DNA of 64,000 nt, from assembly GCA_963747705.1 (NCBI GenBank), contig CAVVGF010000076.1, forward strand, positions 4,642 to 68,641, read 5' to 3'. The notes below the pieces were generated by a model. That model had not been told where the DNA came from. It was given only the letters and a program-made list of their open reading frames with translations, and searched no databases. Source of the stretch: an uncultured Actinomycetes bacterium. GTDB taxonomy: Bacteria; Actinomycetota; Actinomycetes; Streptosporangiales; Streptosporangiaceae. A program made the translations under genes and the position numbers. Each line of letters starts with the position of its first letter. Positions within the stretch are counted from its first letter, which is position 1. Positions 32,051 to 51,604 of this stretch are shown here, piece after piece.

Positions 32051-35000
32051 CTATGGCACGGTGACTCCCTGCAGGGCCACCCCCGACGGGTTGGCCGTGG
32101 GGTCCAGCTCGGTCTGCACGTTGACCGTGGCCGGCGGGATCGTGTCCATGACCAGCGGGACCGAACCCGGGTCGGCCGCGCACACCGCGGGCGGCGACGG
32201 CCCGCCCGCCACCGCCGCCGAACACACCCCGAACGTGTAGTCGCCCGGCGTGGCCGTGAACGTGCGGGCGTCGTCGTTGCCGAACCCGTCCTGCCCGGTC
32301 AGTGTGACCGTGAACGTCCAGCCCGAGCCGGGCGTGCCCAGCGTGGCCGTGGGCACGGTGATTGTCACCAGCCCCGGCGTGGCCGATCCGGACGCGCTGA
32401 GCTGGGCCACCGACACCTGCGGCGTGCCCAGGCTGGACGAGGAGGACAGCCCGGAACTGGCCGAGCCCGGGGTGACCCAGTCGTCGGTGCCGAACCCGTC
32501 CACCTCGATCAGCTGGTTCCACGCGTCCGCCGGGGCGATCGAGTAGTTCCACGCCCCGGCCGCCGCCGTCGACTGGGTCTCACCGGCGGGCACGCTGCCG
32601 GTAGGGGCATGAATGTACAGGTCGATGAGCTGCGCGCCGAGCAGCGAGCCGAACGTGGACTGCAGGTTCGCGATCCCGATCTGGAACGACGTGGTCGAGC
32701 CGGAGTTGATCACGGTGAGCCCGGTCAGCCGGAACGAGCCGGGCGCGAACACGGCCGACCCATCGGAGTTCGTCGCGGTCGGGTAGGCGTACGTGCCCGG
32801 CCCGTTGCCGCCACCCGGCGCGGCCGCCGCGCTGAGCACCACGGTGCCCGGGATGTGCAGGTCGGTCACGCTGAACAGCGCCTCGCTGGTCGCGCCGGCC
32901 CGGTCGTCGCCGTGACCTCCACCGAGTCCGTGCCCGGCTGCAGCGTGACCGGCACCGAGAACGCGCCGGACGAGTCCGCCACCGCCGCGGTGATCGTGGT
33001 GGCCGGCGCGGCCGCGCCGGGCGCGGTGCCGGTCGCCACCACCTGCACGGCCGCGCCGGGCGCGGTGGTACCGGTCACCGTGACCGAGGCGGCGTTCACC
33101 GTCACCGACGGGCGGGTCAGGTTGGCCAGCACGTTGCCGCCGCTGACCGTCAGCGGCGCGGTCACCGACAGCGGCGCGGCGGCCGGCGCCCGTCGGAGCA
33201 CGGGCAGGTACCGGTCCGCCACGATCGGCGGCTGCTCCAGCAGGCGGCCCGCCGCCCGGTCCGAGATCAGCCGGAGCAGCTGGGCCTGCGCCCAGGTCAG
33301 CGGGGCGGCCGAGCCGTCGGCCTGGCCGTCGGTGAAGCCGATCGACGCGGTGGCCGGGTCGGCCCCGTACGGCGACGCGGGCACGTCCGGGTAGTTCCAC
33401 ACCTGCTCGGGCACCAGGCCCACGCCGGACGCCGAGTTGAGCATGAAGCTGAGGTCGGCATCGGCCGCGGCCGAGTTGCCGGTGAGGATCTGCTCCTCGG
33501 CGTTCTCCCCGGACAGCACCGGCCACGGATGCCCGGTGCCCTGGTCGCTGGTCGCCCACGGCTGCCCGTTGACCTGGCAGTCCTGGAACACCGAGACTTC
33601 GCAGTCGCCGTACCCGTCGCCGTTGTAGCGCAGGATCCCGGTCCCGGACGGCGTAGCGGCGTCAATGGTGGCCCCGGTGACTTTCAGCGAGTTGGCTACC
33701 AGCGGGTCGCTGGCCGGCAGCTCGCCCAGCCGGACCAGCTCCAGGAAGCCCTGGTCCACCACCGACCGCTGGTCCTGGCTGGCCGTGTTCCCGTTGCCCA
33801 GCGTGTAGGAGAACGCCTGGTCCGGGTCGCCGGTCTTGCCCACCCGGATGAAGTACGGCTGGCTGGACAGCGGCCCGTCGCTGGTCACCGTGGTGGCCAG
33901 GATCAGCCGCCGGAAGTTGTCCGCGGTGGCCAGGAACAGCCGCTGCGACGCGGTGTCGCCCTGCACCCGGGCGATGGCCGCCGCCGCGACCAGGCCCGCC
34001 ACCTCGTCGGCCATGGTGGACGGGGAGAACCCGGTCTGCTCCTCCCAGCGTTCCACCCCGTCGGCCGGGCCGTTGGCCACCAGGAAATCGGCCGCGGGCC
34101 GGATGTGCTGGGTGTACAGCGCGCTGTCGCCGGAAAGCCCGGCCTGCCAGGCCATCAGGATCGGGTCCGCGGTCTCGTCCAATTGCAGCCCGCCGGTGTC
34201 CGGCGCGGCCTGGCCGTTGAGCAGCCCGTTGCGCGGGAACGAGCCGTCCGCCCGCTGCATGTCGTCGAACAGGAACCGGACGATCTGCCGCGCGGTGGTC
34301 AGGTCCCCGTCGGTCAGGAACCCGGTGAACGCCTCGTAGGTGTCCCGCGGGAACACCTCGCGGTAGGACCCGAAGTACGGCGCCAGCCCGTTGCTGGCCG
34401 GCTGCCCGGCCGGTACCGCCTGGCCCCACGGGCTGGACAGCGAGGCCGCGGTGGCACCCGGGAACGTCTTGTCCTCGCTGGCCTTGAGCACGTTGGCGCT
34501 CAGCCAGTACGCGCTGGCCTGGGCCGCGGTCGGCTGGACGCCGCGCCCGCGGGCCGCGCCGCCGGGCGGCAGCAGTTGCGCGTCATAGGCCCGCCAGCCC
34601 GCCTGGTAGGCGGCCAGGGTGGCGGCGAACGGGGCGGCCGACGCGGCCAGCGCGGTGCTGACCGCGGCGTCCTCGGTACCGCCGAAGCCCAGCGCGACCG
34701 TGACCGAGCTGCCCGCCTGGCCCGCGCCGCCGCTCAGCCCGAGCTTGACCGTCTGCACCACATTGCCGTCGTCCGCGTCTGGCGCGCCCGGGGTGAGCGT
34801 GCCGGAGGAGTCGAGCTGGGTCAGCCCGTCGCTGGCGCTGCCGGCGAACCCGGTCTCGACCGCGCCGAACCGGGTGCTGGCGGCCAGCGCCGCGTAGATC
34901 GGCGTGGCGTAACTCCGGTTCACCGCCTCGGTGAACGAGTTGGTCGAGTAGGACAGCGGGACCGGCCCGCGCGCAGTGTTAACAATGGTCGCCGACTCGC

Positions 35001-36139
35001 CGCCGGCGTTGGCTGAGCCACCACCGCCGTGCCCGTTCAGCAGCGGGTTGAACCGCAGGTACACGCTCAGCCCGGACGGCGCGCCGGCCAGCGGCACCAG
35101 GCTGACCTTGATGACCACCGCCTCCGCGGCCGGATCGGTGATGAAGTCGGTGACCAGCTGGAAGTGGTGCGCCGCGTCGGTCGCGGTGACCTGGCAGGCC
35201 ATACCGCTGCTGCCCAGCGAGGACACCGTGTAGGTCATGTCCCGTGGCTGCAGCGCGGTGAACCCGGGACCGGTCACGATCGGGTCCAGGCTCTTCACGT
35301 CGGTGTTGTCGATGGTCGGCGCGTAGGTGTCGGACAGCGTCCCGCCGGCCACCGTGTACCAGGCCTTGGACGCGCTGTCCGCGGCCGTGCCCACGCAGTC
35401 CTTGCGCGCCTCGTCGTAGTACGACATGGCGCCAGGCCCGCCCGCCGCGTCCGCCCCTGTCGTCCCGATGCTCAGGCTGAACACGTGCATGGCCGGCACG
35501 TTCTGGCCCACTGTGTTCGTCCAACCCCGCCGACCGTGGGCAGCGTCACCGAGGTCACCCGGGCGCCCGCGGTCAGCGGGATGGCCGCATAGAACAGGCT
35601 GACCGGGGTGGTCCCGCCCGGATTCCAGCCCGCGGTGGTGGCCAGCAGGTCGGTGCCGGAGGCGGCGCTGGTGTCCACCCAGTCGGCGAACGTGACGGTC
35701 GCGGTGCTGGTGCTGCCGTCCGCGTAGCCGATGGTGAACGTGCCGCTGGTGGACCCGTACGCGGACGCGCCGACCACGCCGAGCACGCTGCCGGTCCCGC
35801 TGACCGCGATCTGCTGGCCGTCGGCGACCACGTTGTCCGGCTGCCCCGGCGGCACGTCCGGCCAGCCGATGCGCAGCCCGTCGTGCAGCAGCGACTGGCC
35901 CGGGACCAGTGCGTCGCTGGCCAGGCCGGCCGCGGCGAACGAGTCACCGATCCCGTCGAAGTTCCCCGCGCCGGCCGTGGCCGCCGTGGTGATCCCGACG
36001 TTGTCGAAGGCCGCCTGCAGGGGCCGGCTGAGGCCGCCACCGCCGGGTTCCCACCGCCCCCCAGCGGGATCAGCATGCTTAACGCCAGAGCGCTGCTTAC
36101 TGCCGCCGCCAGCCGCGCGGTCGGAACGTGGATGCCCAT
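32051..36139 (-). CDS. Secreted GH15 glucodextranase/glucoamylase-like multidomain glycoside hydrolase, three apparent frameshifts
   Basis: ATG 36139 follows GGAGG. Signal peptide ends ..VAASA. GH15 catalytic motifs DPILMAWQ and ERWEEQTGFSPSTMA. C-terminal beta-sandwich domains. Frame joins at about 36021, 35508 and 32900. Confidence 0.75.
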
Positions 36140-36292
36140 GGCCACCTCCGCCGCACATGTTCCCCCCGCGCGGCGCCGGTGAGGAGAGCCGGGGCCAATT
36201 ATTTGCAGATATTTTCGGATCTTTCCCGGCATTGTGGACAACCCCGTCCGCAACACCCCCGGACCTGCGGCTTCGGGACTTATCATGCGGCC

Positions 36293-37668
36293 ATGGGGGT
36301 GCCTGGTTACTTAATGCGGCGCCCCCCATCCTGCGTGGGCCGGGTGGCCGATGGCTCAGCCGGGCCGGCCGCGGCCACGCTGCACACGGTGGCTCTGCAG
36401 ACCGCGGCCCTGGTCCGCTCGATCGGCCTCGGCTACGTGCTCGTCCAGGTGATCATCTGGCGGGAGTTCTTCTTCGCCCACCCGGCCCGGCTATCCGGCC
36501 CGCTGATCGCGATGCTCAGCGCGACTCTGATGGTGATCACCCTGTACCGCGCGGGGTTCACGGTCACCGGCAAATCTCACGGGCGAGGCGGGGCGCGCCG
36601 CAGGCGTGTGCCCGCCGAGCCCGCGTTCGGCGCGGAGCGGCGAGCGGCGGCCGGGGGCAGTCCCCCGGGCGAGCGGAGCGTGGGGTCGTCCCCCCGGATG
36701 ATTGCTGACTCAGCCATCTGTGTGCTGCTGGCGCTGGGGGCCGGGCGGTGTGTGCCGCCGGCCATGCGCGGCGACACCGCGAGCTGGCTGTACATCGCGC
36801 TGGTCGTGCAGGTGATATGCCGGCCTGGTTCGCGCCGGGCTGGCTGGCCGGGCTGGCCGGGCTGGCGTCGGCGGCCGCGTTCTGGGCTGGGGTCCAGCTG
36901 ACCGGGGCGGCCAGCGGCACGTCGCCCGCGGCGGCCGCCGCGTTCCTGCTCTCGGTGACGGTCGCGGTCTGGTGGGGCTACCAGGTGCTGTACCGCCGGG
37001 CCGCGCGGGCCGATGCCGAGCTGGCCCGGGCCGACCAGGAATCCCGGGAGCAGTTCGTGCTGCTGTCCCGCGGCGCGGAACGCCGGGAGCACGAGCGCGT
37101 GCTGCACGACACCGTGCTGAACACGCTGACCGCGCTGGCCCGGCTGGGCAGCGGCCCGGCCGCCGAGGTGGCCGGGCAGTGCAGGCACGACGTCGCGCTG
37201 GTGGAGGACATGCTGGGCGCGGCCGGCGGCCCGGCCGGGGCGGCCCGCCAGCCGCTGGATGGCCTGCGTCTCGCCCTGGACTCGGTGGCCAGCGAGATGC
37301 GCGGCCGCGGCCTGGTGGTGCACGTCGGGGCGCTGCCCGGCGGCACCGCCGGGTACGCGCTGCCGGTGCCGGTGCCGGTGTCCGCCGCCCTGGCGCAGGC
37401 GGTGCGCGAGGCGCTGGCCAACGTGCTCAGCCACGCCGGTACCGGCGAGGCGTGGGTAGACATCGCGGCCACTGAACCGGGGCCGCCGGGCGGCCTCCGG
37501 GTCACCGTGCGGGACGACGGCGCCGGCTTCGACCCGGACCGGGTCGATCCGTCCCGGCTCGGGCTGCGCCGGTCCATCGTCGAGCGCATCGCGGACTGCG
37601 GTGGCCAGGCCGTGGTGCGCTCCGCGCCCGGACAGGGGACCGTGGTGTCCCTGAGCTGGCCATGCTGA
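36293..37668 (+). pseudogene. NarL-type sensor histidine kinase, copy 1 (frame broken by an extra AT at 36815-36816)
   Basis: Multi-TM N-terminus. H-box ERREHERVLHDTVLNTL, N-box REALANVLSHAGTGEAW, G1 VRDDGAGFDP. V(36812) and M(36817) are separated by 2 nt. Confidence 0.7.
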
Positions 37669-38794
37669 GCCAGGACGGACTGGTCCAGCAGACCTATGCG
37701 GCCGGGCTGCCCCGGATGGCCGCCGGGGTGGCTCTGGTCTGGCAGTTCGCCATTCTCGTCCAGGTGCTGGCCTACCGGAACGACTTCCGCCAGCCCGCCA
37801 TCCCGGTGCTGGTCTGGCTGGGCCTGCTCGGGACGGCGGCCTGGCTGCTGCCCCGGGTCCGGGGCAGCAGCCAGCTCGGCCGGGCGGATGCTGCGCTGGC
37901 CATCGCGGTCGCGGTGGCCGCGGTCGCGGTGGTCGGCTGGGAGCGGCGGCTGCACGCCACTGGCGCGGTGGACTGGTCGGTGGCCGGGACCGGCTGGCTG
38001 CTCGCGCTGGTCGCGCTGAGCCGGCGGCCTGGGAATGGATCACTGGGGCGCTGCTGGTGTTCGCCACGCACGCCGCCGTCGCCTACCGGGTGCTCGGGGT
38101 GACCGCGCTCGGCCAGGCCCGGCTCGCGGCCACCGGTTACACGCTGCTGGTCATCCTGGCCGGGTTCGCCGCGCTGCGCCCGGCCATCCGCGCCCAGGCC
38201 CGGGTGGCGGCCAGGCGCGCCACCCTGGCCAGCCAGACCGCGGCGGAGCGGGCCGCGGCCACCGCGATCCAGCAGGACCGGCGCCGCCGGCTGGACGTGC
38301 TGGAGGAAGAGGTGCTGCCGTTGCTGCGCGGCATCGCGGACGGCACGGCCGACCCGGCCGACCCGGCCGTGCAGCGGCGCTGCGGCCAGCGCGCCGACGC
38401 GCTGCGCCGGGCCCTGGCCGACCGGGCCGAGCCGGACGGCGGGCTGCTGGCCGGCCTGGCCCCGGCCCTGAACGCGGCCCACGACCGCGGGCTGCCGGTC
38501 GAGGTCCAGGTCATCGGCGACCCCGGGATCCCGGCGCCCGAGGTGGCCGGCGCGACGCAGGCGGCAGTCAGCGACGTGGTCGGCGCGCTGCCACCGCACC
38601 CGGTGGTGCTTACCGTGCTGGCCTCCGAGGACGAGGTGGAGCTATACCTGACGTTCGAGCAGCCGCCGCCAGGCCCGCTGGACGTGGCCGGACTGCGGCG
38701 GCTGGTGCCGGCCACGGCGGACTGGCGGGCAACGATGGACATCGGTGACGCAGGTGCCGGATTCCTGGCCGTCCGGTGGCGTAAGGCCGCGTGA
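37662..38794 (+). pseudogene. Kinase-like membrane partner protein, copy 1 (frame break at 38028-38029)
   Basis: ATGCTGA overlap with the kinase-1 stop. It is a paralogue of 40228..41412. LSRR / WEWITGALLVFATH joins only if 1 nt is added. Confidence 0.6.
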
Positions 38795-38882
38795 CCGGAA
38801 ATTTGCGCTGCACATCTTTTGAATAAGACATTGTGCTGCAAACCACGCAGCGCGGCCAGGCTGAAGGCCTATCATCGAGCCC

Positions 38883-40234
38883 ATGCGGTCGGCCCGGTCC
38901 TTACCCCTGCACTCCGCGGCCCGGGAGGCCAGCGGGGTAACGGCGGCTGGCCCGGCCATGACCGTGCTCGGCACGATGCTCACCCGGATCGCCGCCATCA
39001 TCCGCGGCGGTGCCGCGGCTTATGTGCTCGTCCAGGTGTTCATCTGGCACGCCTTCTACCGGGCTGACCCGGTTCACTTGTGGGGCCCGGCGGTCGCGGT
39101 GACCTGGGCCGCCGCCGCGGTCTGGTACCTGCGCCACCGCCGCCCCCCGTGGCCGCTGGTCTGCCTGGACTGGGCGGTGTACGCCCTGCTCGCGGTGGCC
39201 GCGGGCGGCTGCGTGCCGGACTCCATCCGCGGCCAGCCGGGCGAGTGGCTGTTCATCGCGGTGGCCAGCGGCCTCATCGTGCAGGTCTGGTTCACCCCGG
39301 CCCGGCTGTCGATGCCGCTGTCGCTGGCTTCCGGGCTGGCGTTCTGGGGCGGCACCGTGCTGGCGCCGGGCAGCAGCACCGCTCGCGGTGCCCGGGCCGC
39401 CACGGTAGTGCTGCTGTTCGTCGTCGTCGTGGTGCACTGGTGCGGCCGCCAGTTGCTGTACCGCCGCGCGCAGCGGGCCGATGCCGCGCTGGACGCCGCC
39501 GACCGGGAAGCCCGGGACCAGTTCGTCATCCTGTCCCGGACCGTCGAACGGCGTGAGCACGACCGGCTGCTGCACGACACCGTGCTGAACACGCTGACCG
39601 CGGTAGCCCGGTCCGGCTCGGCTGGCGGGATCGTCAGCCGGTGCGGTCAGGACCTGACCCGGCTGGAGCGCGCGCTCAGCGAACCCGCTGACCCGGCCAG
39701 GGCGTTCAGCCGGAAGGTCGATGAGCTGGCCGCGGACCTGCACGCGATCGCCGGCGAGATGCGCGCACGGGGGCTGGCCGTGCAGGTGCGGCTGGAGCCA
39801 GGCCCAGTGCCGCCAGGCCCAGTGCCGCCAGGGCCAGTGCCGCCAGGGCCAGTGCCGCCAGGCCCAGTGCAGGCAGGCCCAGCCGTGCCGGTCCCGGTGG
39901 CGGCGGCTATCGCGCACGCCACCCGGGAGGCGCTGGCCAACGTGGCCGCGCACGCGGGCACCGGCGAGGCCTGGGTCACCGTCCGCCCACTGGCCGCGGC
40001 GCCCGGCGCCGAGCCGGGGGTCGAGGTGACGGTGCGGGACGAGGGCGCCGGGTTCGACCCGGCCCGGCTCGGCCCGGCCCGGCTGGGCGTCCGCCGGTCC
40101 ATCACCGAACGGGTCACCGACTGGGGTGGCTCGGCCGCGGTGAGCTCCGCCCCGGGCGCGGGCACGATGGTCCGGCTGTGCTGGCCCGCGCAGCCCGAGC
40201 CAGCGCCGGCGGGCCAGGGGCGGCCCCGTGCTGA
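38883..40234 (+). CDS. NarL-type sensor histidine kinase, copy 2
   Basis: H-box ERREHDRLLHDTVLNTL, N-box REALANVAAHAGTGEAW, G1 VRDEGAGFDP. There is no in-frame stop until 42074. Adding one C to the run at 40224-40227 gives ..GRPPC-stop at 40232-40234, mirroring copy 1 (WPC-stop). Confidence 0.7.
39798..39872. repeat. 15-bp tandem repeat, about 5 copies (CCAGGCCCAGTGCCG), encoding (PGPVP)n inside kinase 2
   Basis: Units at 39798, 39813, 39828, 39843 and 39858. Kinase copy 1 has only ..LPVPVPV.. at this position. Confidence 0.9.
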
Positions 40235-41412
40235 CCCAGGACCGGGCCGCGCTGGCCAGCCGGGCCACCACGGCCGGCGGGGCGGTCGAGGTCGGCACCG
40301 AGTCGGCCGCGCCGCTGTTCGTCGGGGCGCTGGCGGTGATCCTGCCCAGCGGGATGCTCCTCCAGGTGCTGACCACGTTCGGCGACTACCGGCAGCCGCT
40401 GGCCGCGGTGGCGGTGTGGCTGGCCATGCTGCTGGTCGTGGCCTGGCTGGTGCCGCGGTCGCTGGCCTGGGGGCTCACCCGGCCGGAGGCGGTGGCCGCG
40501 ATCCTGGTGGCGGTGGCCGCGCTGACCGCGATCGGCCTGGACCGGAAGGAGCACCTGGCCGCCGGGTCGCCGGACTGGTCGATCCTGGGCACCGTCTGGC
40601 TGCTCGCCCTGGTGGCGCTCAGCCGGTCGGCCTGGCTGTGGGTGCCGGGCGCGGCGCTCGTGTTCGCCGCGCACGCGTTCTTCGTCGTGGACCTGCTCGG
40701 CGCCACCCCGCTCGGGCTGGCCCGGGTGGCCGCGGGCGGCTACGCCATGGCCGTGGTGCTGGCCGTCTTCGCCGCGCTGCGGCCCACCCTGCGCACCCAC
40801 TCGGAGATCGCGGTGCGCCGGGCCGAGCTGAGCAGCGGGTCGGCCGCGGAACGGGCCGCGGTGGCCGCCATCCACAACGACCGCGCGGGCCGGATGGCGC
40901 TGCTGGAGGTGGAAGCGCTGCCACTGCTGCGCGGCATCGCCAATGGCTCGCTCGACCCGGCCGACCCGGCGGTACGGCGGAAGTGCGCCGAGCATGCCAC
41001 CACGCTGCGCCGGGCCCTGGTCCGGCGGACCGAGCAGGCCGACGGGATGCTGGCCGGGCTGGAGCCCGCACTGGGCACGGCCCGCGCCCGGGACATGCCG
41101 GTGGAGATCCAGGTCGTCGGGGACCCGGGCCAGCCCGGCCGCGAGGTGACCCAGGCCACCCTGGCCGCGGTGCAGGCGGTCCTGCAGGCGCTGCGGCTAC
41201 AGCCGGTCATCCTGACCATGCTGAGCGCCGGGGACGAAGTGGAGCTGTACCTGACCTTCCGGCTGACCCCGGCCGACCCGGGCCCGGTGCGGGCCAGCCT
41301 GGCCGGGCTGGGCCAGCCGGTCCCGGCCGCCGCGGCGTGGCGGGTCACGCTGGACGCCGAGCCGGCCAGTTCGGGCTGCCTGGAGGTCAGCTGGCGGAAG
41401 GTGGCCCGGTGA
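40228..41412 (+). CDS. Kinase-like membrane partner protein, copy 2 (no H/N/G boxes)
   Basis: 394 aa starting at GTG, with several TM spans. The cytoplasmic part aligns to the kinase DHp/CA region but reads MALLEVEALPLL where the kinase reads RLLHDTVLNTL. GTGA overlap onto the response-regulator start. Confidence 0.65.
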   Translation: MLTQDRAALASRATTAGGAVEVGTESAAPLFVGALAVILPSGMLLQVLTTFGDYRQPLAAVAVWLAMLLVVAWLVPRSLAWGLTRPEAVAAILVAVAALTAIGLDRKEHLAAGSPDWSILGTVWLLALVALSRSAWLWVPGAALVFAAHAFFVVDLLGATPLGLARVAAGGYAMAVVLAVFAALRPTLRTHSEIAVRRAELSSGSAAERAAVAAIHNDRAGRMALLEVEALPLLRGIANGSLDPADPAVRRKCAEHATTLRRALVRRTEQADGMLAGLEPALGTARARDMPVEIQVVGDPGQPGREVTQATLAAVQAVLQALRLQPVILTMLSAGDEVELYLTFRLTPADPGPVRASLAGLGQPVPAAAAWRVTLDAEPASSGCLEVSWRKVAR

Positions 41413-42074
41413 CCGAACCGGCCGGCCCGCCGCCGGTCATCGACGTGGCCGCGGTGGATGACCACCCGGTCATCCTGGACGGCCTGCCCGGCTGGGTGGC
41501 CGCGCCGGACAGCGGCATCCGGGTCATCGGCACCGCGGTGACGGTGGCCGGGCTGCTGGCCGGGCCCGGCCGGGCGGCGAATGTGGTGCTGCTCGACCTG
41601 GACCTGGGCGACGGCAGCACGGCGCAGCAGAACGTGGCGCAGATCCGGGCGGCCGGCCCGGCCGTCCTGGTGCTGTCCGCGTCGGACCGTCCCGGCACGG
41701 TCCGCGACGCGATCCGGGCCGGTGCGCTCGGCTATGTGCTCAAGAACGAGGAGACGGCCGAGGTCCGTGCGGCTATTAAGGCGGTGGCCGCCGGAAAGGA
41801 CTGGATCTCGCCCCGGCTGGCCTACATCTTCGCCACCGACGACGCGCCGGACCGGCCTGCGCTAAGCGCCCAGGAAACGCGCGCGCTGCGGCTTTACGCC
41901 ACCGGTATGCCGATGAAGCTGGTCGCCCGGCGAATGTGCATTAGTGAAGAGACGGCCAAACAGTACGTAGGCCGGGTGCGGGAGAAGTACGCTCGCGCCG
42001 GACGGGCGGCACCCACTAAATTGGACCTGTACTATCGAGCCGTCGAGGACGGGCATCTCCCCCCTCACCCCTAA
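41409..42074 (+). CDS. NarL/LuxR-family response regulator
   Basis: Receiver residues VDDH, LLDLDL, LVLSAS and GYVLK. C-terminal LuxR HTH LSAQETRALRLYATGMPMKLVARRMCISEETAKQYV. Confidence 0.85.
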   Translation: MTEPAGPPPVIDVAAVDDHPVILDGLPGWVAAPDSGIRVIGTAVTVAGLLAGPGRAANVVLLDLDLGDGSTAQQNVAQIRAAGPAVLVLSASDRPGTVRDAIRAGALGYVLKNEETAEVRAAIKAVAAGKDWISPRLAYIFATDDAPDRPALSAQETRALRLYATGMPMKLVARRMCISEETAKQYVGRVREKYARAGRAAPTKLDLYYRAVEDGHLPPHP

Positions 42075-43772: not shown

Positions 43773-44498
43773 GGAGGGGTGTCGGCAGGCAGGAAGCCGT
43801 CGATCAGGCGGGTGATGACGGCGTCGAAGATCTCGTCCGCATCGGGTGCGGCTGGGGCTGGCGCGGCCAGCGCGGCGGTCAGGTTCGGGTAGCGGCCGGT
43901 GGCGGCGGCCGTTACCAGCTGGCTGACCTGCGCGGCGGCTTGCTGCTCGGCGGTGACGCCGGTGCGCGCGCGCTCTTCGGCCAGCGCCGCCTGCATTCCC
44001 CCGTAGCTGATCGCGAAGCCGTTGACCATCGCGAGCATCTCCATCTTGCTCGCAGTGTCCAGGCGCGTGCCGTTGAGCAGACCGAGGAAGTAGTCGAGGT
44101 AGACGCAGCGCGGCCGGGCCCATAAGCGGCGGGCGGCTGGTGATCACCCGTGGCAGCCAGGGGTGGCGCTGAGTGATGTCCCGGCCCTGGCGGGCCAGCT
44201 CCACGATGGCCTGACGGATGTCGCGGGGTGGCCCGGCTGGGAAGTGGTACTCCTCGCTCACCTCGTCGATCATCAGCTGGACCAGGTGGTCCTTGGTCGG
44301 CACGTAGTTGTACAGCGACATGGTGCCCAGGCCGAGTTCGGCCGCCATCCGCCGCATGGTGACCGCGTCCAGGCCCTCGGCGTCGGCCAGGGCCACCGCG
44401 GCGGCGGCGATCGCGTCCCGGCTGTACCGCGCCTTGGGCCCGCGCTCACCATGCTCGGGCAGCTCCCAGATGGACGGCGGCACGCCGGCGTTGGCCAT
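43769..44498 (-). CDS. TetR/AcrR family transcriptional regulator, apparent frameshift about 44115
   Basis: HTH VTMRRMAAELGLGTMSLYNYVPTKD. The frame join is ..ITSRPPLMGP / PRCVYLDYFLG... The stop codon (43769-43771) lies inside the palindromic-element arm. Confidence 0.75.
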
Positions 44499-44592: not shown

Positions 44593-46438
44593 ATGGTCAT
44601 GTCAACTCCGATCGGGGACCGCACCGCCGGGGCCGACGCCGCCCGGGCTGATGCCGCCCGGGAAGACGCCGGCCGGGCTGATATCGCCCGGGAAGACGCC
44701 GGCCGGGCTGATATCGCCCGGGAAGACGCCGGCCGGGCCGGCGACGCCCGTGATAACTCGCCGCCGCCCGCTGGCCGGCGGCTGCCCTGGCCGGTCCGGC
44801 TGTTCACCCGGCTGTCCCGGCGCGGCCTGCCGCCGCCGGTGTGCGCGGTACGGGTCGCGGCCGGGATCGAGGTGCCTGCCGCCGACGGGGTGCCGCTGCG
44901 CACCGACCACTACATCCCGCAGCTCACCGGGCCCCGGCCGACGCTGCTGGTGCGCAGCCTTATGGCCGCGGGCTTCCCGTGGGCGTTCCTGTTCGGCGGC
45001 CTGTTCGCCGAGCGCGGCTATCACGTGGTCATCCAGAGCTGCCGCGGCACCGGCGGGTCGGGTGGCGAGCAGTACCCGCTGCGGCACGAGCGGGCCGATG
45101 GCCAGGCCGCGGTGGCCTGGCTCCGCCAGCAGGACTGGTTCACCGGCGAACTGGCCACCATCGGGCCGAGCTACCTCGGGTACACCCAGTGGGCGCTGGC
45201 CGGCGACGCGCCGCCCGAGCTGCGCGCCATGATGGTGCAGAACGGCGTATCGGTGCCGCACCCGCTGCTGTATCCCGGGTGGCGCGTTCGCGCTGGAGAA
45301 CATCCTCGTCCGCACCGCGTTCACGCTGAGCTGGCACCGTGGGCTGCGCGCAGTGCTGCGGAGCCGTGCTGCGGATGCAGCGGCGGTTGCGCCGGGTGGC
45401 CCGGACGCTGCCACTGATCGACGCCTACCGGAAGCCCTGGGCGGCCGGGTCGGCTACTTCGAGGACTGGCTGACTCACCCGGACTCCGCCGACCCGTACT
45501 GGACCTCACTCGACCGGGCGGCCGATGCCCCGGTGCCCACGGTGCCGGTCAGCCTGCTCTCCGGCTGGTCAGGACATCTGCCTGGACCCGACCCTGGCCG
45601 AATACCAGCGGCTGCGGGCAGCGGGCCGCACGCCACGGCTGGTGGTCGGCCCGTGGACGCATGCCTCGGCGTTCAACGACGACCTGCCCGTCGTCGTCGG
45701 CGAGGCGCTCGACTGGCTGACTGCGTACTGCAGCCACGACCCGGCCGGCTGGACCGAAGCCCCCGGTACGGGTGCACGTCGGCGGTGGCCGCCGGGAATG
45801 GCGCGACCTGCCGGACTGGCCGCCGCCGCAGGCCGCCGTCCAGACCTGGCGGCTGGCCGTGGACGGCACGCTCGCACCAGCCAGGCGGCCGGGGCGGGGG
45901 TGTCGTCGCTGCGCTACGACCCGGCCGACCCCACCCCGTCGGTGGGCGGGCAACTGGTCAGCGACAGGGCCGGGGCGCGGGACAACCGGCCCTGGAGGCC
46001 CGGCCCGACGTTCTGGTCTTCACCAGCGCGCCGCTGCCCGCCGATCATTGAGGTGATCGGCCCGGTCAGCGCGCGGCTGCGAGTACGGGCCAGCGGCCCG
46101 CACTTCGACGTATTCGCCCGGCTGTGCGACGTGGACCCGCGGGGGCGTTCACGTAACGTCTGCGACGGGCTGATCCGGCACGACCCCGGCGCCCCGGCCG
46201 AGCCCGGGCCGAGCCCGGCGGTACGGCGATCACCGTGCCGATGAGTGCGACGGCCTACCGGTTCCGGGCCGGGCACCGGCTGCGGCTGCAGGTGTCCGGC
46301 GGCGCGCACCCCCGGTTCGCCCGTAATACCGGCACCGGCGAGCCGTGGGCCACCACGACCCGGCTGGCCGCGGTGGACCTGGAGATCGTGCACGACGCGC
46401 CAGATCCGGCCGGGCTGTCGCTGCCGGTCCTGGGCTGA
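44593..46438 (+). pseudogene. CocE/NonD (X-Pro dipeptidyl-peptidase S15) family hydrolase, about 9 frame breaks
   Basis: Family-typical segments (GTGGSGG, SLLSGW/QDICLD, GPWTHAS, YDPADPTPSVGG, DVLVFTSAPL, GHRLRLQVSGG) are recoverable only by switching frames near 45285, 45365, 45440, 45570, 45765, 45880, 45985, 46048 and 46215. Confidence 0.7.
44626..44745. repeat. 30-bp tandem repeat, about 4 copies, encoding (AREDAGRADI)n
   Basis: GCCCGGGAAGACGCCGGCCGGGCTGATATC at 44656 and 44686, with diverged copies at 44626 and 44716. Confidence 0.85.
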
Positions 46439-46516: not shown

Positions 46517-49376
46517 CTAACAGCTGCCGACGCCCTCCCAGGCCGCGACGGTGTCGCTCGCGGTGTTGCTGCTATCGGCGGTATCGAAGCCGAACGTGCG
46601 GTTGGCCACGAACGCGCAGCTGCTGCTCTCCTCCACGTTGTTCCAGCTGCCCAGCGTGAACTTGTACTGGAACGCGGCCGTTGGCACGCCGGTGATGGTC
46701 AGCGTCCAGGTGTCCGTGCCGGTCTTGATCATCGGGTAGTCGGTGGCGATCCAGTCGTCGGATGACGGGATGCCGGTGCCCAGCACGTCGTAGTTGCCGG
46801 ACAGGTACACGGTGTCCCCGCTCGGGGTGTCCGAGGGCACCGTGACGTTGATGACGGCGGTGGCGCTCCCGCAGGCGGACGGGCCGCCCCAGTTGGCCAC
46901 GGTGTCGTTCACCGTGCCGCCGTTCACGCTCATGCTGCGGTTGCTGATGTCCGCGCAGTCGGCGTTCTTCTCCACGTTGCTCCAGCTGCCGCCCAGGTCG
47001 TACTTGTACGACAGCGTGGCGTCCGCGGCTGCCTGGATGGTCGCGGTCCAGGTACTGGCGTTAAGCCGGGTCATCGGGATGCCGTTGGCAGCCCAGTCGG
47101 ACTGGCCCAAGCCGAGCACGGACAGATTGCCGGCCAGATACACGGTGTCCCCCGAGGCGTCGGTGTTCACCGGCACGGTCACGTTGACCGTCTCCTTGAC
47201 CGACCCGCTGACCGGGCAGGTGCTGTCCTGCACGCACTGGGTCACCACGCTCGGCGTGTCCACGTCCTTGCCCGCCGAGATGTCGATGGCCAGCCGCACG
47301 TACTGGGCCATCGCCCACATCAGCGGGGTGGACGAGTTGTCCGGCTGGCCGAACGTGAACCCGCCGGTGCCGGTGCTGCCGCCCCAGACCTGCTCGGAGA
47401 TCTGGTCGCCGGCGTTGGCCGCGCCGGCCATGGTCTGCAGCATGCGACTGGGCGCCGGTCAGGTTGCCGTCGGCCACGTCGTACTCGCCGCGCTCGCCGG
47501 TCAGCACCGGCCACGGGTTGCCCACCCCGGACCCGGTGTAGTCGCCGCCCGAGGAGGTCTCGCCGTAGCCGTCGAAGTTGTACCGGTGCCAGATCGGCCC
47601 CTCCGGGGTGTTGACCTCGAGCTCGGAGTCCACCACCGACAGCGTGTTGGTGATGTCGGTGGCGCTGGCCGACTTGATGCCGAGCCGGACCAGTTCCAGG
47701 AAGCTCGGGTCGACCACGGTGCGGTCGTCGTGGCTGCCGCCGCCGTTGGCGATGGAGATGGACGAGCCGGAGTTGGGGTTGCCATCCGGGGTGATCCGCA
47801 GGAAGTAGTCGCCGTTGCCGTACGGGCCGGTGGTGGTGTACGTCATGCTGTCCACCTCTGCTGCCCAGGACAGCGCCGTCGACTGGTAGGTAGCGGCCAG
47901 GCTGGTCGCTCCGTTGGTCTCGGCGATGGACGCGGCGCAGATCAGGCCGGCGATCTCGGCCGCCATGGTGGCCGGCGAGTAGCCGCCGTTCTCCTCCCAG
48001 CGCTCCTGCGGCGTGTACGGGCCGTTGGCCACCAGGTAGTTGGCCAGCAGCTCGATGTGCCCCCAGTCGGTCGAGTTGGTCGCGCCCAGCTGCTAGGCCA
48101 GGATGATCGGATCGGCGACCTCGTCCATCTGCAGCGAGCCGAACACGGTGTTGCCGTTCAGGAACGTGTTCTGCTTGACCGCGCCGCTGGATTCCTCCTC
48201 GTACGTGAAGATGTACTGCAGCGCCGCGTTGGCGTCGGTACTGTCCCCGGCGGCCAGCAGCGCGGAGGCCATCTCGTACTCGTCCCGGGTCCACACCACG
48301 TGGTAGCCGTGATCGCCGGCGCTGTTCGCGCTCACGCTGGTGCCCCACGGGATCGGTCGGCGCGGCGACGAACCCGCCGACGTAGGTCTTGTCCTCGTCG
48401 GCCTTGAGCTCCATCAGCGAGACGTAGTACTGCTGCTCCAGCGCGCTGCTGCCGGTCACCGACGCGGGCGGGCGTTCAGCCCGCTGACCCAGGTGTGCCA
48501 GCCGGACTCGAACGAGCTCTCCAGCGAGCTGAACCCGGTGGCCAGCGAGGCCGCCGCGTCGGAGATCGCGGCCGACTGGCTGGAATCGAAGGCCAGCGCC
48601 AGGGTGAACGTGGTCGACCCGCTGGCCGCCACCGGGATCTGCGCGACCTGGACGATGTGCCCGGCCGTGGATGCCGAGCTGTACGTGGAGGTCAGGCCGT
48701 AGCTGCTGGTGAGCATGCTGCTGCCGTCGCTGGAGGTGCCGACGTAGCCGGTGCTGGTCTGGCTGAACCCGGTCGACGCGGTCAGCGCGCTGGACACGGT
48801 GCCGTTGCTGGCCACCAGGTCACCGCTGGTGCTGTCGGTGCCGCCGGTGTTGCCCATGCCGTCGTTGTTCAGCTGCGGCAGGTAGTCGGCGTACAGCTGG
48901 AGCGAGCTGGAGCTGAGGTTGTCGAACGTGGTCTGGATCAGGATCACCGACCGCGACGGGTCGGCGACGTACGTCTTGGTGATCTTGAAGTCGCCGTTGG
49001 TGGCGGTGTTGACCTGCTGCCAGACCAGCGAGGTCGGGTCGACCAGGGAGATCGTGTGGGTGGTGTTGGCCGTCTCGGTGCTGGCGAACGACGACCCGTC
49101 GGTGACGATGTACTGCAGGCCGAACGTGTCCGGGGTGTCCGTCTCCGGGTAGAAGACGTTCTCCAGCTCGCCGTCGCCGAGCGTGTACCAGACCTTCGAG
49201 GCCGAGCCGAGCGAGTCGGCGAAGCCGGTCACGTTCGACTCGTTCCAGGTGGCGTTGGCCCCGGGCGCGCCCGGGGCGGTGGCGGCCAGCGCCGGGGTGG
49301 CCATGGTGACGCTGCCCGCCACGACCAGGGCCGCGGCGGTGAGTAAGCTCGCGCCGCGTCGTTTCCTTGTGCGCAT
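46517..49376 (-). pseudogene. Secreted GH15 glucoamylase with two C-terminal starch-binding-type modules, disrupted
   Basis: Signal peptide MRTRKRRGASLL... GH15 N-domain and catalytic motifs (HVVWTRDEY, ERWEENGGYSP). Frame joins at about 48462, 48354 and 47445, plus an in-frame TAG at 48090-48092 where GH15 has Trp (..DPIILA-stop-QLG..). Confidence 0.75.
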
Positions 49377-49733: not shown

Positions 49734-51604
49734 GTGTTCGCACTCCGCGCCGCCACCGCCGCGTTCAGCACCGTCGTCACCCTGGCCGTGCCGTCCGCCT
49801 TACCCGCCGCCCCGGCGGCCGCCGCCGAGGCCCGGGCGGCCGCGATCCGCCCCGCGGTCGCGGTCGCTGCCGCTGCCGCGCCGGCGGCGGCGCCGTCGGC
49901 GGCCAGCACCGGGGCCACCGGGGTCATCGTGCAGATGTTTGACTGGCCCTGGCCGGCCATCGGTGCGGAGTGCACCAGCGTGCTCGGCCCGGACGGGTAC
50001 GGCGCGGTGCAGATCTCCCCGCCCGAGGAGGCCGTGGTGCTGGCCGCCGACGGCTACCCGTGGTGGCAGGCCTACCAGCCGGTCAGCTACAGCCTGAACT
50101 CGCGGTTCGGCACCGAGACCCAGCTCGCGTCGATGATCTCGGCCTGCCACGCCGCCGGCGTCAAGGTGTACGCCGACGTGGTGCTGAACCACATGACCGG
50201 CCAGGTCAACGGCGGGGTCGGAGACGACGGCACCACGTTCCCTGACAACTTCGACTACCCGCCGCTGTACAGCGAATCCGACTTCCACAGCTGCCACACC
50301 TCGATCACTGACTGGGACGACGAGTCCCAGGTGTGGAACTGCGAGCTGAGCGGCCTGGCCGACCTGGACACCGGGTCGAGCTACGTGCAGCAGCAGGAGG
50401 CTGGCTACCTGAACAGCCTGATCGCGCTGGGCGTGGACGGCTTCCGCTGGGACTCGGCCAAGGAGATGGACCCGGCCGACATCGCCGCGATCGAGGCGCT
50501 GCTGACCAAGCCGGTGTTCATCTACCAGGACGTCGAGTACGGGGCCGGGCAGCCGGTCACCCCGGACCTGTACGAGGGCACTGGGTCGCTGGAGGAGTAC
50601 CGGTACGGCTGGGACCTGTACGACGCGTTCACCTCGGGCACGCTGGCCTCGCTGAGTGACTTCGGCCCGTCCTGGAACTCGGCGGGCATGGTGCCGAGCG
50701 CGGACGCGGTCGCGTTCGTGGACACCCAGGACACCGAACGGGCCGGCGGGGCGCTGACCTACGCCAACGGCGCGCAGTACATCCTGGCCAACGTGTTCTT
50801 GCTGGCCTGGGACTACGGCACCCCCAGGGTGCTGTCCGACTACGCGTTCAGCAGCTACGACCAGGGCCCGCCGAGCGCGGGGGGCAACGCGATCGCCACC
50901 CCGTGCTGCGGCAATGGAACCTGGGAGTGCGAGCAGCGCTGGCCGGCCATCGCCGGCATGGTGGGCTGGCACAACGCGGCGGGCACCGCGGCGGTGGCGA
51001 ACTGGTGGAGCGATGGCAGCAACGTGATCGCGTTCAGCCGCGGGTCGGCCGCCTGGGTGGCCATCAACGCGGAGAGCGCGCCCGGTCACCGAGACGTTCA
51101 GCCACCGGGCTGCCGGCCGGCGCCTACTGCGACGTGATCAGCGGGTCGGCCGCCGCCGGGGGCTGCACCGGCACCACGGTGGTGGTGAACGCGGCGGGCC
51201 AGGCCACGGTGACCGTGCCGGCCATGGGCGCGGTCGGCATCGACGTGGCCGCCGAGGACAGCGCTGCGGCCGTGGCCGAGACCGTCACCGTGACCGTGCC
51301 GGCCGATACCGACGCGTCGGGCGACACGGTGTACCTGGCCGGGAACCTGTCCGTGCTCGGCGTGGGCCAGTCCGACTGGGCGCCCAACGGCATCCCGATG
51401 ACCCGTCTTAACGCCAGTACCTGGACCGCGACCGTCCAGGCAGCCGCGGACGCCACGCTGTCGTACAAGTACGACCTGGGTGGCAGCTGGAGCAACGTGG
51501 AGGAGACGGCCAGTTGCGGTTACGTGGCCAACCGGAGCATGGCGGTAAACGGTGGCACGGTCAGCGACACCGTTGCCGCCTGGGCCGGTCTCGGTGGCTG
51601 CTGA
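49734..51604 (+). CDS. Secreted GH13 alpha-amylase with C-terminal starch-binding-type module, apparent frameshift(s) about 51080-51110
   Basis: Motifs DVVLNH, GFRWDSAKE and FVDTQD. The C-terminal module follows after ..TGLPAGAYCDVISG.. in another frame. Confidence 0.8.

Follow-up and report, generated by a model that had tools for sequence, protein, structure and literature searches.

Two homologous signalling modules lie side by side upstream of a single NarL/LuxR-type response regulator (RR) gene in a 64 kb stretch of DNA (the window) from an uncultured Actinomycetes bacterium (contig CAVVGF010000076.1). Each module encodes a multi-transmembrane (multi-TM) histidine kinase and, directly downstream, a partner protein that is predicted to be a catalytically dead paralogue of that kinase. 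The kinase and partner are termed K1 and P1 in module 1 and K2 and P2 in module 2. We consider it fairly probable that the products form two heteromeric kinase/pseudokinase sensors that converge on the one NarL-type regulator, and that the five genes constitute one signalling unit.

Organization of the locus

Six-frame analysis of open reading frames (ORFs) and comparison with orthologues showed the order leader 1-K1-P1, then leader 2-K2-P2-RR, on the plus strand between 36.2 and 42.1 kb of the window (Table 1). All coordinates given below are positions in the window. Direct-repeat blocks with a spacing of 2468–2603 nt and an identity of 70–82% were found between the modules, and global alignment of unit 1 with unit 2 gave 65% identity over 2472 aligned columns. 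These two results agree with the initial annotation of the locus, which described two units of about 2.6 kb with the same layout. At the protein level, the identity between modules was 51% for K1/K2 and 52.5% for P1/P2. The G+C content of the region is about 75%. Beyond the five genes, no second kinase, partner or regulator of the same kind was found in the 64 kb window. The closest relatives are soil metagenome-assembled genomes (MAGs) labelled Streptosporangiaceae, Trebonia or 'uncultured Actinomycetota' (MFD bins).

Table 1. Features of the doubled kinase-partner locus and the evidence for each.
Feature	Coordinates	Strand	Evidence
Leader 1	36196..36292	+	Conserved in relatives, homologous to leader 2
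K1, MacS-like multi-TM histidine kinase, ~458 aa after correction	36293..37668	+	Pfam HATPase_c
P1, predicted pseudokinase partner of K1, ~377 aa after correction	37662..38794	+	Intact orthologues
Leader 2	38795..38882	+	Conserved in relatives
K2, MacS-like multi-TM histidine kinase, 450 aa after restoring one G	38883..40234	+	Pfam HATPase_c, NCBIfam MacS
15-nt tandem repeat inside K2	39798..39869	+	Repeat detection
P2, intact predicted pseudokinase partner, 394 aa	40228..41412	+	AlphaFold2 (AF2), Foldseek, hhalign
NarL/LuxR-type response regulator, 221 aa	41409..42074	+	Pfam Response_reg + GerE

The partner family

P2 gave no match in Pfam or NCBIfam. The search of 31 diverse members of the partner family against Pfam produced nothing consistent, with no HATPase_c and no histidine phosphotransfer (HPt) domain, and the partner-family profile found no credible relative among PDB sequences. 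The partner therefore belongs to no characterised family in these databases; the initial annotation likewise did not recognise it as a named family. The source names seen for the stand-alone partner matches were all 'hypothetical protein', except two that read 'uncharacterized membrane protein (UPF0136 family)'. Among the scored candidates, the family comprised 838 clusters at 90% identity (E ≤ 1e-3) and 327 at the 50% level.

The AF2 model of P2 (mean pLDDT 85) showed six TM helices joined by short loops, a long helix (residues 161–238) running out of TM6, a return helix (247–269) and a small alpha/beta domain (292–390). Foldseek comparison of this model with the PDB returned almost only histidine kinases. 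DesK was the top match, followed by BceS, HK853, AdeS, the catalytic and ATP-binding (CA) domain of VanS, AgrC, CpxA and DivL. The E values were 1e-5 to 1e-4 for DesK, HK853, VanS CA and DivL, and the TM-score of VanS CA was 0.64 on the target. Pairwise BLASTP of P2 against K2 reached only E 0.05 over 52 residues, which is insufficient alone, so profile-profile comparison and structure were used. The hhalign comparison of a 56-partner profile with a profile of 24 cognate kinases covered 384 columns with a probability of 99.9% and an E value of 3.3e-31. When P2 alone was the query, phmmer matched the kinase half of fusion proteins with E values between 1e-6 and 1e-8.

In the alignment, the phospho-accepting His of the kinases (LLHDTV) coincided with Glu227 of P2 (within 40897–40917). 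In the close subfamily this column is Glu or Asp, and elsewhere it varies; His was present in 0 of the 31 members. The N-box Asn of the kinases is paired with Ala in the partners, which have a shorter segment in place of the G1/lid region. On the profile alignment, P1 and P2 showed no N, G1 or G2 box. Because Glu replaces His and the N, G1 and G2 boxes are missing, P1 and P2 are predicted to be catalytically dead, with neither ATP binding nor phosphorylation at the canonical site. The profile alignment and the model indicate that both are full-length, ancient paralogues of their own kinases, with a six-TM region, the hairpin of the dimerization and histidine phosphotransfer (DHp) domain and a stripped-down CA fold. 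The description of the partner as a protein with a TM-plus-cytoplasmic layout and without kinase motifs was thus borne out; the boxes are missing even on proper alignment, yet the partner is a genuine kinase paralogue.

A different His was observed in a distant subfamily (P0232–P0269). It is near-invariant in the motif (L/V)H.DR..R(Y/F), about 10 residues N-terminal of the position aligned with the phospho-His. This His is kept in P2 (IHNDR) and is not kept in P1 (IQQDR).

Coupling of kinase and partner

The kinase and partner genes overlap by a 7-nt start/stop element (ATGCTGA or GTGCTGA) in the window and in the related loci L001, L004, L018, L020 and L021. Single-chain fusions of kinase and partner were found in about 24 of the 150 top family representatives. 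They are 750–930 aa long and carry HATPase_c in the N-terminal half, and their order is constant, with the kinase N-terminal and the partner C-terminal. One fusion cluster consists of RefSeq proteins from cultured Nonomuraea, one of them from an assembly of 10.6 Mb, which shows that the fusions did not arise through gene calling.

The kinase-partner-regulator triad was present in 10 of the 11 GTDB loci among those listed (L007–L016), and also in L001, L004 and L022–L024. The survey covered at least 11 GTDB loci, with incomplete taxonomic coverage. The remaining locus, L017 from Frankia, has kinase and partner and no regulator match. Conservation of the triad had been named as a point on which the initial annotation could fail; the triad recurred in every related full locus examined except L017. 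Distant loci with the triad have different neighbours, which indicates that the triad is the conserved unit and that the GH15/amylase genes around it in the window are a local context. A second context of kinase-partner systems in relatives lies between an AI-2E transporter gene and the gene for SerRS.

The most conserved motif of P2, LPLLRGIANGSLDPADPAVRRKC (40918–40986), corresponds to the DHp hairpin and has the consensus LPLL.G.A.G.LDP.DP.VR..C..A..LRR. The LPLL.G.A.G... stretch covers the loop of the hairpin, together with the end of DHp helix 1 on one side and the start of helix 2 on the other. In canonical kinases, this is the surface on which the receiver domain docks. The best-conserved part of the partner would thus be suited to a role in which P acts on RR itself, as a phospho-independent sink, a scaffold or an anti-regulator that docks the receiver domain through its DHp hairpin, or in which P silences K as a dominant-negative member of a DHp heterodimer. 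A model for the latter is RetS, which reportedly switches GacS off. The Glu at the phospho-His position, which is phosphomimetic-like in the close subfamily, is in line with such a role, as are the best structural matches of P2, which are chains of DesK-DesR complexes. We nevertheless find this explanation quite unlikely: the natural fusions and the translational coupling favour a 1:1 assembly of K and P over a free RR-binding factor, and a Nonomuraea fusion occurs without an adjacent regulator.

The kinases K1 and K2

Both kinases matched HATPase_c (PF02518) above the gathering score of 26.4, K1 with 52.4 bits (E 8.7e-14) and K2 with 36.4 bits (E 7.9e-09). The H boxes are EHERVLHDTVLNTL in K1 (37087–37128) and EHDRLLHDTVLNTL in K2 (39555–39596), and the phospho-acceptor His is invariant across all aligned kinase orthologues. 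The N boxes were located at 37405–37443 (K1) and 39924–39962 (K2), and the G1 boxes at 37507–37536 (K1) and 40032–40061 (K2). G2 boxes were also located in both. K1 and K2 each have about six TM helices joined by short loops; their ATP-binding domain is intact, and Pfam found no receiver domain on either.

The H, N and G1 boxes reported in the initial annotation were thus confirmed by the motifs and by HATPase_c. Its assignment of the kinases to the NarL-type subfamily was not confirmed by Pfam, in which HisKA_3 gave no match to K1 or K2 at E ≤ 1. The NarL-type/HisKA_3 placement rests only on the H-D motif, the NarL-type RR and weak NCBIfam matches to NarX, NarQ, UhpB and LiaS. K2 scored 90.2 bits against the NCBIfam MacS model NF047322, whose cutoff is 300, with residues 33–434 aligned to positions 6–366 of the 367 in the model. 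This score indicates that K2 belongs to a family related to MacS but distinct from it, and is not a MacS equivalog. K2 is 78–80% identical to the intact kinases of L001 and L020.

DHp helix 1 is nearly identical in K1 and K2 (HDTVLNTLTALAR vs HDTVLNTLTAVAR), and after the His only one, conservative, residue differs. The TM regions of K1-P1 and K2-P2 have diverged. In the K1 lineage, the loop that follows TM2 contains an Arg-rich insertion of about 45 aa (...GRGGARRRRVPAEPAFGAERRA..., about 36548–36694), which is in frame in L020 and missing from all K2-type kinases. The 15-nt repeat of K2 encodes (PGPVP) about 5 times and lies after the DHp-CA linker strand, ahead of the N box. The orthologues of L020, L001 and L004 lack it, and L004 has an unrelated insertion at this place. 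The repeat may have expanded in this strain only, or it may be an artefact of the assembly.

The response regulator and the leaders

The regulator matched Response_reg (PF00072; 36.5 bits, E 5.9e-09) and GerE (PF00196; 27.2 bits, E 3.1e-06), both above the cutoffs. The phospho-Asp region LLDLDLGD lies at 41589–41612 and the helix-turn-helix at 41913–41969. The start of RR overlaps the end of P2 through GTGA, and RR is 92–95% identical in L001, L007 and L018–L021. No other Response_reg + GerE gene was found in the window, in agreement with the view that only unit 2 is followed by a regulator with a GTGA overlap. The sequence GTGACCG, described as a remnant of the regulator start after copy 1, does exist (38791–38797). 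Its resemblance to the RR start is not significant alone, because GTGA holds the stop codon of P1 itself and only about three further bases match.

The two leaders are homologous and each is conserved in orthologues, as expected from the AT-rich leader that had been noted as duplicated. TATCAT lies 6 nt before the ATG of K1 in leader 1 (36281–36286) and 7 nt before the ATG of K2 in leader 2 (38870–38875). Leader 1 is conserved in L018, L020 and L001, and its TATCAT-N6-ATG core also in L021. All orthologues, even that of the distant L004, share the TATCAT-N6/7-ATG arrangement with both leaders. Since leaderless mRNAs occur commonly in Actinomycetota, TATCAT is probably the -10 box that drives a leaderless transcript of each module. 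In leader 2, the AT-rich block CTTTTGAATAAGACATTGTG (38816–38835) is invariant in six genomes, whose whole loci are 86–90% identical in DNA. The block sits between the dyad-like arms TTTG..CACA and TGTG..AAA (38800–38845). It can be viewed as a candidate operator, and binding of RR to it is a speculation from this arrangement.

Conservation, loss and age of the doubled layout

The doubled layout recurred in four loci from other assemblies. In L018, L019 and L020 the five genes are collinear with the window at 88–90% nucleotide identity; L021 is also collinear, except that it has lost GH15 and the 5' end of K1. All five genes are intact in L020, with 425 (K1 as called; up to 449), 376, 427, 396 and 220 aa. 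P1 is intact in L018, L019 and L021, and K1 is in a single frame in these loci (without its 5' end in L021). A total of 14 intact P1 orthologue clusters were found, 81–97% identical, with forms of 375–377 aa among them. The comparison of the window with L007 gave dN/dS values of 0.22 for P1 (against the L007 remnant), 0.58 for P2, 0.43 for K2 and 0.18 for RR. Against L001 and L007, the values for K2/P2 were 0.40–0.58, markedly above those of P1 and RR. These ratios indicate that P1 is under purifying selection. The resident module (K2/P2) evolves faster than the 'extra' module. The dN/dS values between the modules (0.7–0.8) were discarded as uninformative, since extreme GC3 constrains the synonymous sites and the divergence is deep.

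Loss of module 1 has left traces in two relatives. In the L001 scar (L001:6540–6640), about 45 nt from the start of leader 1 are followed by about 45 nt from the end of P1 (...GFLAVRWRKAA*) and then by leader 2. This arrangement shows, as read from the sequence, that the ancestor of L001 had module 1 and lost about 2.5 kb. A 5.4 kb deletion in L007 corresponds to 32484–37884 of the window and removed the GH15 gene, K1 and the first ~74 codons of P1. The P1 remnant (L007:4660–5583; residues ~92–377, 89.5% identical) has an open frame that runs upstream into antisense GH15. Taken together, the comparisons indicate that two kinase-pseudokinase pairs with one RR are a conserved feature of the clade that is dispensable in some relatives.

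Neighbour-joining trees placed K2/P2 with the L004-type single-copy systems (bootstrap 83–89%) and K1/P1 outside, loosely with other genera; the trees were made by a fast distance method and their deep nodes have low bootstrap. The units are thus doubled and homologous, as the term 'tandemly duplicated' implied, but a recent duplication does not agree with the position of K1/P1 outside the clade of K2/P2 and L004. Module 1 appears to be either an old paralogue or a xenologue beside the resident operon.

An alternative explanation is that K1-P1 signals to an unlinked orphan regulator and that the modules are adjacent by history only, for example through insertion of a xenologous or paralogous kinase-partner pair next to the resident operon. 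K1/P1 lie outside the clade of K2/P2 and L004 (the bootstrap of 83–89% given above) and are about as distant from K2/P2 as are the single-copy systems of other genera, kinase-partner systems of relatives occur in the AI-2E transporter/SerRS context, and fused forms can be orphans. We hold this explanation to be improbable. DHp helix 1 after the His has the single conservative difference between K1 and K2, the pentad is collinear in the four further loci L018–L021, and there is no other regulator within the 64 kb window. In addition, the module-1 junction lies exactly at the RR start position, with leader 2 directly after it.

Frame breaks and integrity of module 1

As sequenced, three of the four K/P frames are broken by 1-nt deletions relative to intact orthologues. 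The K1 break was located near 36816 by comparison with L018, L020 and L021, with the N-terminal TM part in another frame. P1 is broken near 38024 and split into the ORFs 37662–38102 and 38057–38794. In K2, one G is missing from the run at 40218–40221, and the TGA of GTGCTGA (40232–40234) is out of frame. After addition of one G, the K2 C-terminus reads ...QGAAPC*, homologous to ...QGAGPC* of L001. Of the start/stop overlaps reported in the initial annotation, ATGCTGA (K1/P1) holds as it stands, and GTGCTGA (K2/P2) only after this 1-nt correction. The raw K2 ORF has no in-frame stop and runs for 1063 codons to 42074. A kinase-regulator fusion of 1063 aa (38883–42074) was considered and rejected: over its middle 400 codons it reads P2 in the -1 frame, stop-free runs are expected at 77% GC, and one G restores ...APC*.

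Four flanking genes also switch frame, namely a 1361-aa GH15 (32051–36139), a TetR (43790–44495), an S15 peptidase (44779–46429) and a second GH15 (46520–49367). Their breaks lie near 32899, 35520, 36017, 44102 and 47444, with several in 45270–45920 and at least 8 in all; they were judged against orthologous proteins, mostly 74–95% identical. L019 and L020 encode an identical P1, and K2 and P2 are broken in L019 only. The related loci come from 'contig_N' long-read MAG assemblies of the same project. The three K/P frame breaks are probably errors of an indel-rich assembly, given the breaks in the flanking genes, the single missing bases relative to intact orthologues and the contrast between L019 and L020.

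The breaks bear on the explanation that module 1 is a regulator-less relic in the course of being lost, that only K2-P2-RR is functional and that the doubling has no design significance. Both K1 and P1 are frameshifted in the window, and module 1, which lacks a regulator gene, was cleanly deleted in L001, while GH15, K1 and the start of P1 were deleted in L007. We judge this rather unlikely. The frameshift density of module 1 (2 in 2.6 kb) matches that of the neighbouring genes, K1 and P1 are both intact in L020, and P1 is intact in L018, L019 and L021. The 14 intact P1 clusters, with their identity of 81–97%, and the dN/dS of P1 (0.22), which is below that of P2 (0.58), point in the same direction.

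Proposed mechanism

In the reading that we favour, with two heteromeric sensors and one regulator, K and P would be made in stoichiometric amounts through translational coupling. They would assemble in the membrane as a heteromeric sensor via their homologous DHp and/or TM regions. P would then tune the kinase/phosphatase balance of K or supply part of the sensing surface; it may be an activator, an inhibitor or a co-sensor. Both sensors would set the phosphorylation of the single RR, in a many-to-one design. Each module would be driven from its own leader, probably by a leaderless promoter, and the upstream AT-rich element may be an autoregulatory site of RR. A more specific proposal, which we put forward tentatively, is that P1 and P2 represent a large unannotated actinobacterial family of membrane pseudokinases whose members are obligate heteromers with their MacS-like sister kinases, to which they are fused in many lineages. 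In this Streptosporangiales-like clade, two such sensors would pass two membrane signals to one RR, which would autoregulate both modules via the conserved element of the leaders.

Several points weigh against the favoured reading. The sharing of RR by K1 is deduced from the lack of a second RR in the 64 kb window and from the near-identical DHp helix 1. Because this helix hardly varies within the family as a whole, its similarity has little power to discriminate. A scan for sigma-70 promoters and terminators gave nothing useful, with a consensus of the E. coli type. The Nonomuraea salmonea fusion (L025:5001–7244, 747 aa) has no adjacent response regulator; fused kinase-partner forms can be orphans. 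Two close relatives, L001 and L007, have lost module 1, and to judge from these deletions some lineages can do without it. If the breaks in K1 and P1 were real, module 1 would be a pseudogene here.

Few bacterial pseudo-histidine kinases have been studied, among them DivL, RcsD, RedE, FasC and PsmA, and each altered the understanding of its pathway. The partner family described here is invisible to sequence searches of Pfam, NCBIfam and the PDB, and it always occurs directly after, or fused to, a paralogous true kinase. If the proposed reading is true, the heteromer would be a natural and genetically tractable model of asymmetric kinase dimers. It would also provide an annotation rule for hundreds of 'hypothetical membrane proteins' beside actinobacterial two-component systems. 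A natural experiment on signal integration versus redundancy is offered by the doubled layout with one RR, which close relatives have lost repeatedly.

Comparison with known systems

The locus had been described as not a standard two-component layout. It is unusual, but it is not without precedent, since FasBCA and AbrC1/AbrC2/AbrC3 are comparable. The locus is a variant of two-component systems with a pseudokinase accessory and not a new category.

The closest system in logic is FasBCA of Streptococcus pyogenes, which also has two adjacent membrane kinase-like genes upstream of one RR. The adjacent kinase-like pair reportedly heterodimerises rather than homodimerises and acts jointly on the RR (PMC12675982). 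One of the pair was proposed to be a pseudokinase with a dispensable kinase domain; FasC keeps a phosphorylatable His, H246 (PMC12675982). In contrast to FasC, P1 and P2 have Glu in place of this His and no ATP-binding motifs. The present system belongs to another phylum, no sequence relationship to FasBCA was detected, and its RR is of the NarL/LuxR type. The pair is moreover present twice here and is often fused in other lineages.

The closest system in layout is AbrC1/AbrC2/AbrC3 of Streptomyces coelicolor, an actinobacterial many-to-one system. It has the order kinase-kinase-RR, and both kinases act on the adjacent NarL-type RR (PMC9739842). The two AbrC kinases are both active and directly adjacent, with no pseudokinase partners described, whereas each kinase of the present locus has a dead paralogue, as predicted above. 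MacRS likewise combines a multi-TM kinase with a NarL-type RR, and MacS is the nearest named kinase family to K2. We know of no pseudokinase partner described for MacRS.

RetS with GacS and RcsD with RcsC/RcsB are examples of kinase-fold proteins without kinase activity that modulate the signalling of a true kinase. Dead kinase folds that regulate kinases have also been described for DivL with CckA (PMC4211667), for an evolved ChrS with HrrS (PMC9491836) and for RedE in RedCDEF (PMC2755868). The ChrS-HrrS heterodimers were reported in an actinobacterium, and the ChrS pseudokinase was a laboratory-evolved mutant (PMC9491836). DivL was among the structural matches of P2, but it is soluble or polar and has Tyr in place of His. 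None of DivL, RetS, RedE, RcsD and ChrS is a full-length paralogue whose gene directly follows that of its kinase and is linked to it by translational coupling. The Rcs system differs further through the HPt domain of RcsD and the receiver of the hybrid kinase RcsC; Pfam found neither domain on P or K here.

LiaFSR and VraTSR are three-gene operons of a membrane accessory protein, an intramembrane-sensing HisKA_3-type kinase and a NarL-type RR. LiaF and VraT do not have a kinase fold and are encoded upstream of the kinase. The present locus resembles these operons in combining a membrane accessory protein, a kinase and a NarL-type RR in one operon, and differs from them in that P is a kinase paralogue and is encoded downstream. 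A literature search on DUF5931 found no papers.

Neighbouring genes

The signalling locus of the window is flanked by GH15 glucodextranase/glucoamylase paralogues (32051–36139 and 46520–49367) and an alpha-amylase gene (49908–51083). The linkage to GH15/amylase genes was considered as a functional clue and rejected, because it was found only in close relatives (L001, L004 and L018–L020) and the other loci have different neighbours. The Nonomuraea salmonea fusion of L025 lies among MOSC, GyrI-like/MerR and TetR genes.

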